From a virus, in the IMG/VR virus record IMGVR_UViG_3300028133_000003, positions 4,219 to 68,218 of that record: a stretch of 64,000 nt of DNA. One strand, 5' to 3'. The first letter of the stretch is position 1, and every line of letters starts with the position of its first letter. Both the position numbers and the translations under genes were made by a program. The notes below the pieces were generated by a model. The model had not been told where the DNA came from and ran no database searches. It saw only the letters and a list, made by a program, of their open reading frames with translations. Below are positions 4,217 through 62,364 of the stretch, one piece after another.

Positions 4217-4278
4217 TCTATTTTATCTTTTTTTGATTCTTTTTTTATATATCCATCTCTCATGAGAAAGATATTATA

Positions 4279-5781
4279 TTAGTATCTAACATTTTGTACC
4301 TCGAATGGAAATTTTTCTTCTTTATAAATTTTCCTTCTTTCCATACCATGCCTGTAAATATAATTTACCCAATCATGATCATCTACTTTATATCTAAAAT
4401 CATCAATAAAATCATATATCTTTACAACATCTTTGGCTTCATGTTTTCTTAGACCTCTACCAATTGATTGTCTAATAATTACTTCAGACTTAAATGATTC
4501 AGTAAAAAATATGTTATGTATATTTTTAATAGATATACCAGTTGAAAAAGTACCGTATGATGCTACAATAATAACATCATCATTCTTTTCCATTCTCTTT
4601 TTAAACTCCTCTCTAAAATCAGACTTAACAGAGCCATCTACATAATAAACCTTTTTGTCTGTTATTGTTCTAAGTTTTTTGTAGATCTTTTCACCGTATG
4701 CAATTTTATGAAATAATATTAAAGAATTAGATTTTGATTTTTTAATTACTTGACAAATAAAATCTAGTCTCTTTTCACTTTCATTAATAAAGTTCTGTTC
4801 TAAACTAAATAGCTTTTGTCTATCATACGGGTTTTTAGATAATGATGAGAATGCTTCTTTTTGTGCATCGGTTGCATATTCCATGTGGATCTGTAATACT
4901 TTACATTTTGCAATATGGCCTTCTTCTTGTAAATGAGCAGCCTTTACTTGTGTTACTAATGGGCCCATTGCCGACATTAAACTAAGTCTATTTACAGTCC
5001 CTCGTTTAGGAATAGTTCCACTTAAACCAAATCTATAATCACAGTGCCAGCATTTATCCATTATCTTCTGAATTGAATTTGCTTTTGCTTTATGAGTTTC
5101 ATCAACAAAGACTGCGTCAAATTGACTAAAATATTCTTCATCCTTTTTAGTTAAAGATTGATAAGTACCTATAACTATGTTAGAACTCTTTCGTAATTTT
5201 ACACCTGCATAAATCTGTTGAATCTTAATAGGTACTCTTCCTTTATTGTATTCTTCAAAATCTCCGCTTGCTTGAACTACTAAACTTACATTAGGTACAA
5301 TCATTAGGATTTTCTTTTTACCTAATTGCTCCATCATATAAGCAACCACCATAAAAGAAATTAAAGTTTTACCTGCAGACGTTGCTAATTCAGCCAAACA
5401 CCTTCTGTATTTTAAAATTTTGATTGCAGCATCAATCTGATAGTCTCTAGGTTTAATTTCAGAGTTGGCAAAAAATTCATCTGCCCATGTCTTAAAAGTT
5501 TCCTCATCTATTGAGGTATCAAAAATATCAGTAATTCCGTTTAGTGTAAATTGATAATCATACTCTTTGCATATATCAATCACTTCTTTCCATAAACCTG
5601 CTGGAATTTTATTTCTTTTAATAAATGAAATGTTACCATCCCATACCTTCTTCTTTACCAAAGGATGGAATCTCCACCCTTCTATTTTCTTAGTAAGGCT
5701 AGATTTTAATTGTTCATATTCCAATTCGGTACATGAATCAATTACTAAAAACTTTTTATTTTCTGAGAGAGATAGCTCCAT
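4279..5781 (-). CDS. uvsW: UvsW-like SF2 DNA helicase
   Basis: PRDYQ (Q motif), LATSAGKT (Walker A), DETH, GLSGT, STGISIKNIHNI, QSIGRGLR. Adjacent to UvsY, as in T4. Confidence 0.93.
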   Translation of the reverse strand: MELSLSENKKFLVIDSCTELEYEQLKSSLTKKIEGWRFHPLVKKKVWDGNISFIKRNKIPAGLWKEVIDICKEYDYQFTLNGITDIFDTSIDEETFKTWADEFFANSEIKPRDYQIDAAIKILKYRRCLAELATSAGKTLISFMVVAYMMEQLGKKKILMIVPNVSLVVQASGDFEEYNKGRVPIKIQQIYAGVKLRKSSNIVIGTYQSLTKKDEEYFSQFDAVFVDETHKAKANSIQKIMDKCWHCDYRFGLSGTIPKRGTVNRLSLMSAMGPLVTQVKAAHLQEEGHIAKCKVLQIHMEYATDAQKEAFSSLSKNPYDRQKLFSLEQNFINESEKRLDFICQVIKKSKSNSLILFHKIAYGEKIYKKLRTITDKKVYYVDGSVKSDFREEFKKRMEKNDDVIIVASYGTFSTGISIKNIHNIFFTESFKSEVIIRQSIGRGLRKHEAKDVVKIYDFIDDFRYKVDDHDWVNYIYRHGMERRKIYKEEKFPFEVQNVRY

Positions 5782-46110: not shown

Positions 46111-49100
46111 TTACTCTTCCTTTGGAACTTTGAATATTCCCCATGAACATTTAAGTTCTGCGTATACAGGTGTACCATCATCACTGGCAGTAGTTGGGAG
46201 ACCACTAAAGCCAATAATTAACCTTTCTGTAATTGCATCAACGGCTACCCCAGATTTAAAGACAAAATCAAAACATAAATCAGCAACTGCATTTTCCTTG
46301 GTTCCTAATGCGTAAATATTAAATAGGGACGATTCTTTCGCATCATCTAATGCTTTAGGTATTTTATCCCCAGCAGTATCACTTGTACATGGTAAGCTCC
46401 ATACCGCGCCCCATACTGAACCGTTCTGCGCCCAGTTCAAACCGGTTTGTAGATTCTTTGCCGCAAATGAAACTCTAAGTACAAGGGCATCATCAATATT
46501 AATATCTTCTTGTAAAACAATACCCATTGAAGTAATATCATACGTGCTATACGCATTCCCCCCAAACTTAATTATCGCAGGATCCTGCCCTTTAGCACCG
46601 GTCCAATTTGACGATGACCAGCCAGCAGACTTAGCAGCTGTACTAAAAGAATGCCCTATAATAAAGTTAGAGTTGGTCTGATCCAATGGATTAAATGTTG
46701 GTAACCCATCTCCTATAAACATTGAACTTTCTGCAATTTTTTCAGGTAATCCTGTGTCAAAAGTTCCTTCTAAACCTTGTACACCTTGTAAACCTTGTAC
46801 ACCTTGTAACCCTTGTAATCCTGTAGTTCCTTGTAAACCTTGTGTTCCTTGAGTTCCTTGTAAACCTTGTGTTCCTTGTAAACCATCGGTTCCTTGTGTT
46901 CCTTGTAATCCTGTAGTTCCTTGTAATCCTGTAGTTCCTTGTAAACCTTGTAAACCTTGAGTTCCTTGTAAACCTTGTAATCCTGTAGTTCCTTGTAAAC
47001 CTTGTGTTCCTTGAGTTCCTTGTAAACCTTGTGTTCCTGTAGTTCCTTGTAAACCTGTAGTTCCTTGTAAACCTTGTAAACCTTGTAATCCTGTAGTTCC
47101 TTGTAAACCTTGTAAACCTTGAGTTCCTTGTAAACCTTGTAATCCTGTAGTTCCTTGTAAACCTTGTAAACCTTGGGTTCCTTGTAAACCTAATCCGTCA
47201 TTTCCTTGTAAACCTTGTAAACCTTGAGTTCCTTGTAAACCATTACCGACAACTTTAGTTAATGAAAAAGATACATTATTCATTGTTATAGTAGATGTAG
47301 ATACATTATCAGTTTTAAATCTAACATCTATCACATCACCAGCGGCAAATGTTTCTAAACCGTTTATTGAAAAAGATCCACTTGTATTATTAGCAAACGC
47401 TCTACTTGTTTCTGTTTGTGCAATAATAACACCATTCTTAAATACTCCTACTGTTATTTCACGATTAGCACCAGATGTAATAGTATAGATACCACTCATT
47501 TTATAAACTCCGCCTTCACCTGCATCAATAACTAAAGTATCACCCTGTGCACCTCCACCAGACGAGACATATGACATTTGGCTTATTTCACCTACTGCTG
47601 AAGTATCCCAGCCATTAAAAACATTATTCCATCCTGCTATTGGGGTAGAACTTAATTCATACATTTCACCGTATGCAATAGATCCACTTATCACACCAGG
47701 TTGACCAGTAGTACCTTGTGTTCCTTGCGTCCCAGTACCAGTAGTACCTTGTAAACCTGTAGTTCCTTGTAAACCTAATCCTGTTGTTCCTTGTGTCCCA
47801 ATACCGGTAGTACCTTGTAAACCAATAGTTCCTTGTAAGCCTTGTGTTCCTTGTAAACCTGTAGTTCCTTGTAAACCAATAGTTCCTTGTAAGCCTTGTG
47901 TTCCTTGTAAACCTGTAGTTCCTTGTAAACCTAATCCTGTTATACCTTGTGTTCCTTGTGAACCTAATCCTTGTATTCCTTGTGTTCCTTGAGTTCCAAT
48001 ACCGGTGGTACCTTGTGTTCCTTGAGTTCCTTGTAAACCTAATCCTGTTGCACCTTGAGTTCCTGCTTGACCGGTAACTACAAACGATACTAAAACATCC
48101 TCGTCCATAGTGAACGGTGAATTTTCGGTAGAAGCAACTGGCTGTACGTCTAATTCCCACCAATCAGTTTGATCTTGTAATCCGTCAATTTGCCAAAGAA
48201 TAAATTCGCTAGGATCTGCTTTAGCTGATATTCTAACGTGTCCTTTTATAATAGCCGGGTTAGATGCAATAGTTAATAAAAAGTTTGATATATCGATACC
48301 AGTTACACCAAAGTCATGTATTGACATAATAGTAGCAGTATTCTGAGTTGCATTATTTACAGCAACATAACTAAATCCTGGATTCTGAACCGAGGTAGAT
48401 GTATTAAATTCATAATCAAATGTTGCTCCGCCAAACCCACCATCAGTACCAGAAGTACCTTGTGTACCACCTAAGCCTTGTGTACCTTGGGCTCCCTGTG
48501 CACCAGAACCTGTAGTACCTTGAACACCGAAACCTTGGGTTCCTTGAATTCCAAATTGCCCAGAAATTCCTTGTGTTCCTAATAAACCTTGAACACCTTG
48601 GACACCTTGTAAACCAAATCCGTCATTTCCTTGAACACCTTGTGTTCCTAATAAACCTTGAACACCTTGGACACCTTGTAAACCAAATCCGTCATTTCCT
48701 TGAGTTCCTTGTAAGCCTTGTGTTCCAGTTGTACCTTGTGCTCCAGATAGACCTGCAGATGAAGGTGCTATTGATTGCCAAATAGTACCATTATATTGTA
48801 ATATGTCAGATGATGAAGCACTACCGGATGAAACGTCAGATAACATATCCAATGTTGGTGCCCCACTATTCAGTGTTGCTAAATCAACATTTCCTGAATC
48901 AAAGTTATAATTAATATTCTTATTAGCAGTGTCAGTAGCAACACTTAAGGCATTACCTAATGCTACATCTGAATTGGATGAACTAAAACCTCTAAACTCT
49001 AAAGTAGTTCCATTCATTCCACCAAAAACGTTTTGTCCACCTATACCTATATTAGTACCTTGGTTTATTTCTCCACCGGCAGATGTATTAATAAGTTTAA

Positions 49101-57688: not shown

Positions 57689-58159
57689 TTAAAAGTTACC
57701 GTCAGCTACTTGGAAACAGCTGATTCCATTATTTCTCCACATCTGAACTACCTTATCTCTATCGTCAAATACACATAGTATATCATCAGTGTTTGGAAAT
57801 AAATCGTCAAGCCATTTCTTTTTTAACACATCATCTTTCATCCATTTAAAACCACCACCAGTTGGTCGCATCTTTAAAATGTCAAATGGAATATCAAGAT
57901 CGTTTAACCAATCTTTCGTTGCGTCTTTAGTAGCTTTAGATCTTCCACTAAAAATTACAATTCTATGACCAGCATTTTTGAGAGTTTGGGCCATGAGTAT
58001 TACTGGCCAATTAGGCTTGTCTAATTTAATGTTTGCAGGATCAAAGAATTTATCCCAATCCATATTACCGTTATCTTTTGTGGAGATTGCTCGCCTATCA
58101 TCGATTAGTGCAAGTGTTCCATCCAAATCAAAGATTACTGTTTTCTTTCTATTGCTCAT
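57689..58159 (-). CDS. HAD phosphatase resembling the 3'-phosphatase domain of T4 PNKP (PseT)
   Basis: IFDLDGTLA, FSGR, LKMRP, VFDDRDKVVQMWR..GISCFQVADGNF. Confidence 0.85.
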   Translation of the reverse strand: MSNRKKTVIFDLDGTLALIDDRRAISTKDNGNMDWDKFFDPANIKLDKPNWPVILMAQTLKNAGHRIVIFSGRSKATKDATKDWLNDLDIPFDILKMRPTGGGFKWMKDDVLKKKWLDDLFPNTDDILCVFDDRDKVVQMWRNNGISCFQVADGNF

Positions 58160-58215: not shown

Positions 58216-58416
58216 CTACAGATCTTTTTGTTCTTTATCTCTAAGACTTTGTATATAGGTGGCTTTAATCTTTTGGGCCCTTTTCTTTACTGAAGGTTTT
58301 ACAAATTCTTTACCTTCCTTAATCTTTCTAACTTGTTTAGTTTTCTTTAGCTTTTGCTTATATCTTTTAAGCATCTTATCTATAGAATCCCTTTCGTTCT
58401 TTTTAATTATTATCAT
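58216..58416 (-). CDS. rpsU: Ribosomal protein bS21
   Basis: SIDKMLKRYKQK, EFVKPSVKKR, KATYIQ (Flavobacterium-like C-terminus with Tyr54). Confidence 0.9.
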   Translation of the reverse strand: MIIIKKNERDSIDKMLKRYKQKLKKTKQVRKIKEGKEFVKPSVKKRAQKIKATYIQSLRDKEQKDL

Positions 58417-58993: not shown

Positions 58994-59482
58994 TTACACC
59001 GTTGCCCCAAGAGTAGGTAAATATACCCTTCCTTTATATACTAATGTACCTGATTGTAAATAATAATTGTCCGGTAAAATAGAACCTTCCATGATAGTAC
59101 AGTTATCTTCTATAGTTACACCATTACCAATTTCTGCATCTAAATCAATAACGCAGTTTGAACCAATATAAACCTGATTGCCTAAAGTGACACCTGGTCT
59201 AATTAATGTACTAGGACCTACAGTTAAGCCTGAACCAACCGTCACATCATTTAAATTGTTATCACCTTCAAAAAGAGTGGCAAAAGTTAATCCACTTAAT
59301 TCATTGTTTGCAATAGAAATTCTACTATCTCCGTTTTCTACTGCAATAATCCAATCGTTAGTAGGTGCAGTTTGATAATTAGTTTCATTATATTCAGTAT
59401 ACTCGCTAGGATCTAATAAGGAAGTTATTTTTCTCTCCCATGCATTATTACCAGTAGCAATACTTACAAATACGTTTAGCAT
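58994..59482 (-). CDS. Left-handed beta-helix (hexapeptide repeat) protein, PglD/NeuD-like, paralog 1
   Basis: VGSGLTVGPSTLIRPGVTLGNQVYIGSNCVIDLDAEIGNGV. Confidence 0.75.
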   Translation of the reverse strand: MLNVFVSIATGNNAWERKITSLLDPSEYTEYNETNYQTAPTNDWIIAVENGDSRISIANNELSGLTFATLFEGDNNLNDVTVGSGLTVGPSTLIRPGVTLGNQVYIGSNCVIDLDAEIGNGVTIEDNCTIMEGSILPDNYYLQSGTLVYKGRVYLPTLGATV

Positions 59483-59499
59483 AATATAATTATTTTATT

Positions 59500-59952
59500 T
59501 TAATCATTATCAATTTGAACAACCGAGCCTGATGGTATAATAGTATTGGTAGGAATTGTTACACCTTCATTAATAGTTACGTTATCTCCAATGGTTACTC
59601 CATCACCTATATTACAATTGTTATCAATAATAGTCCCGGCCCCAATATAAACTTGGTCACCTATAACACTCCCGGGTCTAATTAATGAACAGCAGCCAAC
59701 GATTAAACCTTCACCCACACTCACACCATTTAGGTTATTACATCCTTTAAAAAATGTATGTATAATAGACTCCTTTAATTCTGTGTCCATTATAGATAAT
59801 CGGTCATCGCCAGATTCTAAGGCAATAACCCATTCGTTTTTAGCCGGTGCCTGGTCATAATTAGATTCATTAAATAAGGCATATGTACCTGGTTCTAATA
59901 ATGAGGTAATTTTAGTATACCAATCTCCTTCTTTGTAATATATGTTTAGCAT
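59500..59952 (-). CDS. Left-handed beta-helix (hexapeptide repeat) protein, paralog 2
   Basis: VGEGLIVGCCSLIRPGSVIGDQVYIGAGTIIDNNCNIGDGV; collinear with paralog 1. Confidence 0.75.
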   Translation of the reverse strand: MLNIYYKEGDWYTKITSLLEPGTYALFNESNYDQAPAKNEWVIALESGDDRLSIMDTELKESIIHTFFKGCNNLNGVSVGEGLIVGCCSLIRPGSVIGDQVYIGAGTIIDNNCNIGDGVTIGDNVTINEGVTIPTNTIIPSGSVVQIDND

Positions 59953-59975: not shown

Positions 59976-60482
59976 TTAATTAGTGTAAGTTACATCTATA
60001 TCGCCTGCCGTAGTATCAGTTACCCAATAAGGTGGCGATGCAGTAACGCTCTGTAAGTATATACCTAGCTTTTCACGGTTTGTATTTACGACTATGTTAT
60101 TCAGCTCTTCTATTTCTTCCTCAGTAAAATCTTCTAACATATTATTCATTACCATATCTAATGCATGATCCTCATCAAACTCTTCTGGAACTGTATGACC
60201 TTTATATCTACCCATACCTGCATTTGGTGGTTCATGGCGATCTACATAAGGATCATGTTTAGGTTTTTCCTTAACATATAATAAACTAGTGCCTACCAAC
60301 TCAGCAGTTAAATGCCCATCTACATAGATTTCTTTTACTGCATTGTATGGAAGTGATTCCGGAATTAATTCTTGGTATAAGTCTGATTGTGCTGAGATGA
60401 TTTTTGCCACATACGCTTTAGTGTATTTAACATCATACTCTGAAACTTTACCGTTTAGTGTAATTGTTTTTACTTTTGACAT
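59976..60482 (-). CDS. Hypothetical protein
   Basis: 168-aa ORF. Confidence 0.6.
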   Translation of the reverse strand: MSKVKTITLNGKVSEYDVKYTKAYVAKIISAQSDLYQELIPESLPYNAVKEIYVDGHLTAELVGTSLLYVKEKPKHDPYVDRHEPPNAGMGRYKGHTVPEEFDEDHALDMVMNNMLEDFTEEEIEELNNIVVNTNREKLGIYLQSVTASPPYWVTDTTAGDIDVTYTN

Positions 60483-60506
60483 TAGGTTTAGATTGTAATA
60501 AAAAAA

Positions 60507-60934
60507 GGGAAGACGATGCGAAAGGATTTGAGAATACCTTTATTAACGAAAGCTGCTTTATAATAGACTACCACTCTTTGGACTGCCGTCCTATTACTTA
60601 ATTAAACCGGCCGAGGCTTAATCATCGTAATTGATTATCATAATCTTCAAGTGTACCTTACGCCACATACTCTTTGCGTTGTTCAGTCATCAACCAGGGT
60701 TCAGCGGTATGCTTACCTGGAAGTCTTTGCAAAATCTCTGTTAGATTTTAATGCGTTAAACCTAATGCTTTGGTGATTAACCAATTCTGAATTTCTCATT
60801 TGAGATATCAGTGAACCATCGTTCTAGCTTAGTGCCTTATTCCCTTTTGCTCAGGAATTTTTCAGCAACGCATCTACACATAATTGGAATAATCATTTAG
60901 GAGCTACCTAAAGTTTTCCGTTCTGTGCCTTCCC
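60507..60934 (-). ncRNA. Candidate large structured non-coding RNA (428 nt), family unrecognised
   Basis: 5' GGGAAGGC pairs with 3' GUCUUCCC, followed by U7. Many internal helices, upstream promoter motif, no ORF of 60 aa or more. Confidence 0.7.
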
Positions 60935-60972
60935 ATAATTTTAAAGAACTTATTAATTCGTTTGAATTTATT

Positions 60973-61000
60973 ATTATATACTTAGTTTAAAAATAGTTTC
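60973..61000 (-). promoter_or_regulatory. Promoter GAAAC-N17-TATAAT upstream of the candidate ncRNA
   Basis: The same motif and spacing occur at 46079..46106, 58903..58930 and 63859..63886. Confidence 0.6.
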
Positions 61001-61082
61001 ATCTTGATCCTAAAAACATTAAAGTAAAAAATCCAACTACTATAATGATATTAATTATTGTATAAATTCTTTCTTCTTTCAT
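60999..61082 (-). CDS. 27-aa membrane microprotein
   Basis: Translated by hand: MKEERIYTIINIIIVVGFFTLMFLGSR. ATGA overlap with the upstream gene. Confidence 0.45.
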   Translation of the reverse strand: MKEERIYTIINIIIVVGFFTLMFLGSR

Positions 61083-61573
61083 TTCTCGGTTGTATTGATT
61101 ATCCCTCCTATGATCTTGGTATCTGCTAGGTGATCAAATTTACCGTAAGTATTAATTACATAACCAGTTTCAACAGGTGAAAAGGATTGAATACATAGCC
61201 CGTCAAACTCATCGCTAAAAAAGTTACCTAAGTCCATGTGTTCATTTAAGCAAGGTCCACCGCTTGGATCTACCATACTAATCCATGGATTTGATTTTAC
61301 CAGGTTTTGGTATTGTTTTCCAATAACACTAGGTCCTACATATCGATCGTTTTCATCATACACAGATTCATGAATTGCTTCTTTGAAATCTTCAATATGC
61401 ATTGGTGTAATTCCTATACTTGAACTATCTTTGCAATAATTCTGATATGCTAATTTATAGTCATTAGAACTTCCAATTCTACAGTGTTTGAAATTACCTT
61501 CCCATAGAACCGAACCATCTTCTTGTTTTGTGAATGTAAATACATCACCATATCTATTTTTATATTCTATCAT
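61079..61573 (-). CDS. Hypothetical phage protein
   Basis: 164 aa; KNRYGD...MVDPSGGP motifs. Confidence 0.65.
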   Translation of the reverse strand: MIEYKNRYGDVFTFTKQEDGSVLWEGNFKHCRIGSSNDYKLAYQNYCKDSSSIGITPMHIEDFKEAIHESVYDENDRYVGPSVIGKQYQNLVKSNPWISMVDPSGGPCLNEHMDLGNFFSDEFDGLCIQSFSPVETGYVINTYGKFDHLADTKIIGGIINTTEK

Positions 61574-61592
61574 ATCTTTATTTTTATAAGGG

Positions 61593-61666
61593 TGAACCAG
61601 ACAGGATTCGAACCTGTGACCGTCTGCTTAGAAGGCAGATGCTCTATCCAACTGAGCTACTGGTTC
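61593..61666 (-). tRNA. tRNA-Arg(UCU)
   Basis: GAACCAG/CTGGTTC acceptor, GCTC/GAGC D-stem, TCTGC-CTTCTAA-GCAGA anticodon arm, ACAGG-TTCGAAT-CCTGT T-arm. Confidence 0.95.
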
Positions 61667-62257: not shown

Positions 62258-62278
62258 TTTTGTTTATTTAAAGATTAG

Positions 62279-62364
62279 TACCGCTGGGCGGATTCGAACC
62301 GCCACGAACATTACTGTTCAAAGGATTTTAAGTCCTTCGTGTCTACCAGTTTCACCACAGCGGC
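62279..62364 (-). tRNA. tRNA-Leu(UAA)
   Basis: GCCGCTG/CAGCGGT acceptor, AAGGA-CTTAAAA-TCCTT anticodon arm, long variable arm, GGCGG-TTCGAAT-CCGCC T-arm. Confidence 0.95.

Follow-up and report, generated by a model that had tools for sequence, protein, structure and literature searches.

manA and other large phage RNAs

The manA RNAs were described in 2010 as a riboswitch candidate from marine metagenomes and T4-like cyanophages, situated in the 5′ untranslated regions (UTRs) of sugar, nucleotide, chaperone and photosynthesis genes (PMC2864571), and a cyanophage genome paper repeats the description. In vitro, manA RNAs are reported from cryo-electron microscopy to form decamers, octamers and a 60-mer cage, assembled from pentamers by way of kissing loops (10.64898/2026.07.01.735769, a 2026 preprint); the text of the preprint makes no mention of tandem forms or of a function in cells. 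The subject here is a conserved RNA, encoded at 60507-60934 on the minus strand of a viral DNA, whose two halves each resemble manA. The window analysed is a stretch of 64,000 nucleotides (nt) from IMG/VR virus record IMGVR_UViG_3300028133_000003 (record positions 4,219 to 68,218), and coordinates without another source are positions in this window.

Like manA, this is an RNA of marine phages, and its elements follow the manA order, including the H4 element, the terminal hairpin and an outer closing stem. The build differs. manA is a single unit of ~190 nt, whereas the present RNA carries two domains in one chain of ~430 nt, with one outer stem for both, H4 pairing between the domains and an added 5′ arm of variable length. 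The setting differs as well, the host being apparently jumbo-phage-like rather than a T4-like cyanophage, and the RNA lying among transfer RNA (tRNA) genes rather than upstream of sugar, purine or photosynthesis genes.

Two individual phage elements are useful for comparison. The true manA of cyanophage P-SSM2 (locus L103, AY939844 ~142800-143050), flanked by regA and a purL-like gene, reaches 181.6 bits with the Rfam manA model (RF01745), whose gathering score is 55.2 bits. Directly upstream of it is a sigma-70-like promoter, TTGACA-N17-TATAAT, and soon after its outer closing stem comes a U-run; the present RNA shares this arrangement, with a promoter-like sequence of its own, so phage manA RNAs in general may have a gene-like layout. 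A sub-threshold manA relative (25.9 bits) occurs in Pelagibacter phage HTVC008M, a marine phage that is not a cyanophage (L102, KC465899 5037-5223, plus strand), and by eye it too has its own TTGACA-N17-TATAAT just upstream. Unlike the RNA described here, the HTVC008M element consists of one domain, its outer stem is local, and it stands directly before a gene for a single-stranded DNA-binding protein. It overlaps an annotated 56-aa hypothetical coding sequence (CDS; 4993-5163), which may be a mis-call.

ROOL and GOLLD are large multi-stem RNAs associated with phages, often located beside tRNA genes, and they form RNA-only multimers. In the last respect they recall manA as the preprint reports it. 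A comparison with these two families had been drawn in a first-pass annotation, made from the sequence of the window. The tRNA-gene setting is indeed shared, but the GOLLD and ROOL covariance models give no match at the gathering score, nor at E values up to 10 on the locus, and the present RNA is shorter and has a fold made of a repeated manA-type unit. Tandem-aptamer riboswitches, of which the glycine riboswitch is an example, offer another parallel, having two homologous structured domains that touch each other in one transcript. Here, in contrast, the analysis found neither a ligand nor an alternatively pairing expression platform, nor any conserved gene under regulation.

A conserved structured RNA on the minus strand

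The RNA lies in the largest stretch of the window (60499-61078) free of open reading frames (ORFs) of at least 50 amino acids (aa), both strands counted. The first-pass annotation had picked out this gap and proposed within it a multi-domain structured phage RNA, situated in the tRNA region and having its own promoter and a U-tract end. Covariation and conservation bear this out, as, weakly, do contigs from metatranscriptomes. Covariation among homologues, a check that had been suggested at that stage, was assessed on an alignment (A2) of 37 sequences, giving 30 distinct rows, with a model written by position numbers. The model has 121 pairs; 98.6% of 3611 cells are paired, and compensatory change is seen in 45 of the 121 pairs. 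None of 500 shuffles was as high on any measure, and sliding the partners left 3-7 compensatory pairs and 33-47% of cells paired. RNAalifold, given the 30 rows and no other aid, recovers the closing stems P1 and P2, the cross-domain helix SW_B and all local helices, and misses only the second cross-domain helix, SW_A. Several helices had been said to need G-U pairs on this strand, and the alignment agrees: the minus strand is assigned because 208 G-U cells pair only there, the paired fraction falling to 93.1% on the plus strand.

Two points call for restraint. Most variation traces back to about six clades, and independent events are accordingly far fewer than cells. Furthermore, the single-sequence fold gains only modestly over shuffles (z = -2.37) and promoter-like sites are not enriched in the region (30 found, 30.6 expected); therefore, one sequence proves little and the structural evidence is comparative. 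That modest fold energy, together with short ORFs of 20-47 aa on both strands, is what could be said for a DNA-level element, or for a gene of a small protein, that folds by chance. Such an element would not explain the compensatory change in 45 pairs or G-U pairs that suit one strand only. No ORF is conserved in place or length across the RNA region of the relatives, a conserved short ORF that explains the region having been named earlier as grounds for rejecting the call, and contigs from RNA libraries cover the RNA. This alternative is scarcely credible, and that a structured, conserved, covarying RNA is encoded on the minus strand can hardly be doubted.

The body of the RNA runs from the 5′ to the 3′ strand of P1 (60507-60934). 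P1 pairs GGGAAG (60929-60934) with CUUCCC (60507-60512) and is followed at once by seven U residues (60500-60506), the paired ends and U-tract being as first described. Two of its six pairs are compensatory and 98.3% of cells are paired. An eight base-pair version of P1, GGGAAGGC/GUCUUCCC, is possible in the window and was rejected; RNAalifold favours P1a in its place, and two rows have U changed to A opposite G. P1a (GCACA/UGUGU) and P1b, which bears the apical loop UAGCU, make up the 5′ arm (60876-60928). Its length varies among relatives: it is ~24 nt shorter in the homologous loci L058 and L084, and the diverged member L044 has a shorter hairpin instead. P2 pairs GAUGCG (60869-60874) with CGCAUC (60515-60520), with all cells of its six pairs paired, two of the pairs compensatory and a G-C to G-U change in nine rows. 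P2 occupies the place of the manA outer stem and, with P1 outside it, encloses both domains.

Domain 1 (60693-60868) consists of CUGAAAAA-hairpin-UAAGG, a four-way junction with three hairpins, an H4 inner hairpin and an H5 hairpin (60694-60720), and its helices covary (model helices 7-16, 18 and 19). Domain 2 (60521-60692) has an invariant 45-nt core, CUGAACAA-hairpin-UAAGG, followed by a four-way junction with three hairpins (60572-60653), the conserved single strand UAAAGCAGCU and an H5 hairpin (60521-60541); helices 22-26 covary. Two apical loops bear palindromes. UCGGCC (60609-60614), at the tip of the long hairpin of domain 2, contains GGCC and is invariant in 30 of 30 rows; in L044 the stem beneath it is altered and the loop unchanged. 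UAGCU in the 5′ arm (60903-60907) is invariant in 29 of 30 rows. Both may be candidates for loop-loop contact within or between molecules. Pseudoknots between the loops GAUG, AUGAU and GUGGU and a 3′ strand were looked for by eye only, and since their registers differ between the window and L044 no claim is made for them.

Several of the helices proposed by the first-pass annotation have covariation support, namely UUUAGG/CCUAAA, CUG..CUC-AAAU-GAG..CAG, CCAGG/CCUGG, AUUAAGCC/GGUUUAAU, GGAC-GGCA-GUCC and AAAGG/CCUUU. Three others fell away. The long-range UGCGUUG/CAACGCA helix has no compensatory change in its six pairs and is broken at one pair in 13 of 30 rows; its 5′ strand pairs instead with the 3′ strand of P2. 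The bases of UUAGGUUUAA/UUAAAAUCUAA and of AAUAGG/UCUAUU are already used by covarying helices.

Relation to manA

An Rfam scan of the locus, another check proposed at the outset, found no family at its gathering score, with manA as the best sub-threshold match. With the full manA model, domain 1 is matched at 60689-60886 (25.3 bits, E 3e-4), and domain 2, searched alone, has manA at the top of 4227 families (16.0 bits, E 0.039). The scores rise in L044, where a whole-record search with the manA model gives 32.9 and 29.8 bits for the two domains (E 9e-9 and 8e-8 per record), the two matches overlapping by one shared hairpin. In the reciprocal direction, a model of domain 1 alone (R1) has the P-SSM2 manA as its best outside match in 90 kb (14.6 bits, E 0.007), and the next full-length outside match is the HTVC008M element (11.5 bits, E 0.067). 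A partial match of R1 at 48782-48841 (13.7 bits) is spurious and was taken as noise.

The resemblance extends to the elements themselves. Each half has in order CUGAAnAA, a hairpin and UAAGG, then a four-way junction with three hairpins, the H4 region and a GGUA...AAUCC hairpin. The first element, closed by two pairs, occurs in both domains and is aligned to the manA model at high posterior probability; its closing pair covaries, changing from G-C to A-U in L044 (helix 7). The manA-type four-way junction is likewise present in both, and its closing stems and arms covary (helices 9-13 and 22-25). The terminal GGUA...AAUCC hairpin is a close match in domain 2 and a partial one in domain 1, with stems that covary (helices 18 and 26). 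Two traits of manA are built otherwise here. A single manA has its own outer stem and a local H4 stem around the inner hairpin; in the present RNA, P2 serves as the outer stem of both domains together and local H4 pairing is not supported.

Several results count against the assignment. All manA scores are far under the gathering score. A model of domain 2 (R2) has no outside match better than E 0.5, and so domain 2 fails the reciprocal test: R2 scores domain 1 at 9.6 bits (E 0.59) and does not pick up the P-SSM2 manA even at E values up to 5. R1 does not find domain 2, and aligning the two domains directly with each other does no better than shuffled controls (z 1.3 and 0.6). Weighing these failures against the manA matches and the R1 hit, we regard domain 1 as distantly related to manA, and domain 2 as probably a second copy that has diverged further. 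The identity of domain 1 is very probable; that of domain 2 is probable.

The first-pass annotation had raised the possibility of a new class of RNA. On that account the RNA would be unrelated to manA, and the matches would come from short motifs that arose by convergence and from stems arranged alike. The absence of a match at the Rfam threshold suits this idea, as do scores of 16-33 bits against 181.6 for a true member, the failure of the domain 2 model to find manA, and an outer stem and H4 stem built unlike those of manA. It must then be coincidence that manA heads 4227 families for both halves, that two diverged members give full-length alignments, that R1 leads to the P-SSM2 manA and that the unpaired motifs CUGAAnAA, UAAGG and GGUA..AAUCC stand at the same places of the model. 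With both halves resembling manA below threshold and the 5′ half passing the reciprocal search, an unrelated class appears improbable.

An Rfam manA search of PTm1, PAU, pT24 and LR756500, distant relatives among the jumbo phages, found nothing; the control was also unmatched, so this result shows little, and the same type of search initially missed the window's own record, where cmscan finds domain 1.

Two features of the present RNA look new with respect to manA: the presence of two manA-like domains in one chain, with shared closing stems and two cross-domain helices, and a gene-like layout (a conserved TATAAT, a closing stem and a U-tract) in a tRNA cluster where what lies downstream varies between relatives. 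Among the papers searched, none described a tandem manA; the lists of manA instances of the 2010 paper and the structure figures of the preprint could bear on this question and on that of the loop contacts.

Probable joining of the two domains

The strands that would form local H4 stems in manA pair across the domains. SW_A links the 5′ H4 strand of domain 1 to the 3′ H4 strand of domain 2, pairing UUAAC (60755-60759) with GUUAA (60543-60547); four of its five pairs are compensatory and 90.7% of cells are paired in register, compared with 10-67% when the register is shifted. SW_B links the 3′ H4 strand of domain 1 to the 5′ H4 strand of domain 2, pairing AGACU (60722-60726) with AGUCU (60565-60569). 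It is paired in every row, with one compensatory pair, and is predicted by RNAalifold. Local H4 stems as in manA were tried and rejected, having no compensatory change in four pairs in domain 1 and only 68% of cells paired in domain 2. Domain 2 has no inner H4 hairpin, and a local outer stem of four base pairs for domain 2 is possible only in the window-type sequence.

The units are thus joined H4 to H4, in a pseudo-symmetric arrangement. The modelled fold is nested: an outer manA-like unit leads through H4 and a four-way junction to an inner unit. What can be held against the two helices is that SW_A was proposed by hand, is not predicted by RNAalifold and has an A-A mismatch in 10 of 30 rows, and that the compensatory change in SW_B is one event, in L044. 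On the whole we think it quite likely that both are real.

Homologues and conservation

Homologues were sought in viral contigs and in marine metagenome contigs. Searches with the flanking proteins gave 28 viral loci, 21 of which contain the RNA. In two of the others, L025 (624-1537) and L026 (4490-5403), two ORFs of 101 and 169 aa stand instead of the RNA between homologues of the 164-aa and 168-aa ORFs that flank it in the window, and in L016 and L029 other genes occupy the slot. Since L025 and L026 are more distant relatives in which two ORFs fill the slot, the RNA can be viewed as a replaceable cassette. A 17-mer from the most conserved stretch was found in 17 viral contigs, including a chance match (L040) and the diverged member L044, and a 21-mer scan of the metagenome contigs found 48 contigs. 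In all, 85 loci with the 21-mer gave 48 unique segments, 36 of them full-length, and with the window these make the 37 sequences of the alignment, whose identity to the window ranges from 61 to 99%. A scan for the motif of domain 1 returned the same contigs and one new member, L108, which also has two domains. Both domains thus occur together in every member found, the domain 1 motif search included. The 21-mer was not found in contigs of prokaryote genomes, and the locus had no blastn match among 50,697 phage records.

The RNA is at least as conserved as the coding sequences around it in most pairs. In L003 it is 99.1% identical to the window and the flanking CDS are 82.9% and 89.2% identical; L002 is an exception, at ~90% across RNA and flanking CDS alike. 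The RNA stretch is present in 20 sequencing runs from 15 studies, and 13 of the runs are recorded as RNA.

Promoter-like site, 3′ end and changing neighbours

A promoter-like site lies upstream of the RNA at 60973-61002 (minus strand), with 10 of 12 matches: ATGAAA (61002-60997), an 18-nt spacer and TATAAT (60978-60973). A promoter motif here had been noted from the single sequence, and the alignment gives it more weight. Of 37 homologues, 36 have TATAAT upstream, mostly at -44/-45. Between this site and P1 is a leader hairpin, AAUUC-AAAC-GAAUU (60955-60968, five pairs), likely the 5′ end of the primary transcript. One of its pairs covaries, being U-A in four and C-G in four of eight sequences; the hairpin is different and longer in L058 and L084 and absent in L049 and L056.

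At the other end, a run of at least five U residues follows P1 in 34 of 37 homologues. The U-tract is terminator-like in the window, with the reservation that P1 encloses ~420 nt and is not the short hairpin of an intrinsic terminator; a simple terminator scan makes no call. The three exceptions (L004, L058 and L084) count against the stand-alone layout, and in L058 and L084 the 3′ end must be made in another way.

Contigs from RNA runs were compared over 2.5 kb in four runs. Two, from two studies, are confined to the RNA, with little or nothing on the flanking ORFs: X3 spans 60492-60949 and X9 spans 60552-60966, ending ~7 nt after the -10 box. A third, X4 (59994-60927), bridges the RNA and the 168-aa ORF downstream. 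In the fourth, X1, the RNA had no cover, an outcome that carries no weight because records may have been hidden by a filter. Because this cover consists of contigs, it shows neither transcript ends nor level, and the libraries may contain DNA. The contigs are weak evidence, compatible with termination and with read-through alike.

X4 fits a 5′ leader. The RNA would then be a cis-acting riboswitch or attenuator of the downstream operon (the 168-aa ORF and the genes of two hexapeptide-repeat proteins), with a ligand or factor setting the choice between closure of P1 at the U-tract, giving termination, and read-through; two aptamer-like domains could give cooperativity. This is the main rival to a stand-alone RNA because of the bridging contig and the short gap to the next ORF, whose ATG follows the U-tract after 18 nt with no intervening promoter. 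Precedent favours it too: manA is filed as cis-regulatory and was proposed as a riboswitch candidate in 5′ UTRs (PMC2864571), and the layout of the P-SSM2 manA, a true member, is alike, with promoter, RNA, U-run and an ORF 16 nt on. The hexapeptide-repeat proteins have a weak likeness to the C-terminal domains of sugar-nucleotide enzymes, which loosely recalls the sugar genes linked to manA.

The neighbours of the RNA tell a different story. In the window the RNA is 5′ of an ORF of unknown function and the hexapeptide-repeat proteins, whereas in other relatives it is 5′ of tRNA-type genes: tRNA-Gly 4 nt on in L065 and L071, tRNA-Gln ~100 nt on in L108, and a 117-nt gene resembling transfer-messenger RNA (tmRNA) in L044. 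Other, unrelated DNA follows in L058 and L084. Conversely, the pair of ORFs flanking the RNA occurs without it in L025 and L026. These varying neighbours and RNA-free relatives argue against regulation of one gene. Furthermore, no expression platform with mutually exclusive pairings was found, and the stem that would serve as terminator closes the fold as a whole; contigs covering only the RNA come from two studies; and no ligand is known for manA. A leader of the downstream operon is therefore considered rather unlikely, and the evidence inclines, if not strongly, towards a stand-alone RNA that does not regulate a specific gene in cis.

The tmRNA-like gene of L044 (4806-4922, plus strand) begins 10 nt past the RNA and scores 54.9 bits with the Rfam tmRNA model (threshold 47). 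It has the tRNA-like ends only, ~300 model positions covering the mRNA and pseudoknot part being replaced by 43 nt. It is not called by ARAGORN, and by eye its acceptor stem has a G-U at the third pair.

Genomic setting

The source record is 68,218 bases long, with a CheckV completeness of 25%. A protein of its structural region is 28-30% identical to proteins of Sphingomonas phage PAU, Tenacibaculum phages PTm1, PTm5 and pT24 and huge uncultured phages, and this similarity suggests that the phage carrying the RNA is jumbo-phage-like rather than a pelagimyophage. ARAGORN finds three tRNAs on the locus (tRNA-Leu, tRNA-Arg and tRNA-Gln) and no others. Neither ARAGORN nor Rfam finds a tmRNA or RNase P RNA there, in agreement with the lack of their signatures noted earlier.

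Upstream of the RNA is a 164-aa ORF (61079-61573, minus strand) with no family match, and 5′ of that ORF are tRNA-Arg (61591-61666) and tRNA-Leu (62278-62364). Downstream is the 168-aa ORF (59976-60482, minus strand), also without a family match, followed on the same strand by the two hexapeptide-repeat proteins (left-handed beta-helix; 58994-59482 and 59500-59952), which are adjacent paralogues. Further on is a 66-aa ORF for ribosomal protein bS21 (58216-58416, minus strand; PF01165, 31.9 bits, cut-off 27). It adjoins tRNA-Gln and a protein with a polynucleotide-kinase-type phosphatase domain (57689-58159). The RNA may be functionally tied to the translation genes (bS21 and the tRNAs), with adjacency as the sole basis for such a tie.

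A proposed fused manA pair as a free RNA

Taken together, the results would be explained by a stand-alone structured phage RNA of ~430-470 nt in which two manA-type domains are fused head to tail, an explanation to which we give about an even chance as a whole. Transcription would start near 60966 from the RNA's own sigma-70-like promoter, and closure of P1 beside the U-tract would end or trim the transcript. The product would then act as a free RNA and not as a switch of one particular downstream gene. By analogy with the assembly of manA in vitro, its most likely mode of action would be architectural. manA RNAs self-assemble there by loop-loop contacts, and a fused dimer would therefore be a pre-formed two-domain building block, with the invariant apical loops UCGGCC and UAGCU as candidate contacts.

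Oligomeric assembly in vivo is a tentative extension of this analogy and on present evidence unlikely, the cage result being an in vitro one, from a preprint, with single-domain manA RNAs. More doubtful still is its fullest version, in which a covalent manA dimer, highly expressed by jumbo phages beside tRNA genes, would assemble through its apical loops into an RNA-only oligomer or shell in the cell. Were that true, the fusion would hard-wire one symmetry interface of the in vitro manA cages, and the whole manA family would be an architectural RNA rather than a riboswitch.

manA has been an orphan riboswitch candidate since 2010, and the preprint, which reports the cages in vitro, places them in no biological setting. 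The present locus adds a diverged manA branch outside the cyanophages, one missed by the Rfam threshold. For structural biology it offers a new natural construct, in which two fused domains with cross-domain helices make a test case for the docking of units, and for annotation it provides a model of an element found repeatedly in marine viral contigs and metatranscriptomes. The gene-like layout in a tRNA cluster, the changing neighbours and the contigs confined to the RNA argue that at least this branch of manA acts as a free RNA.

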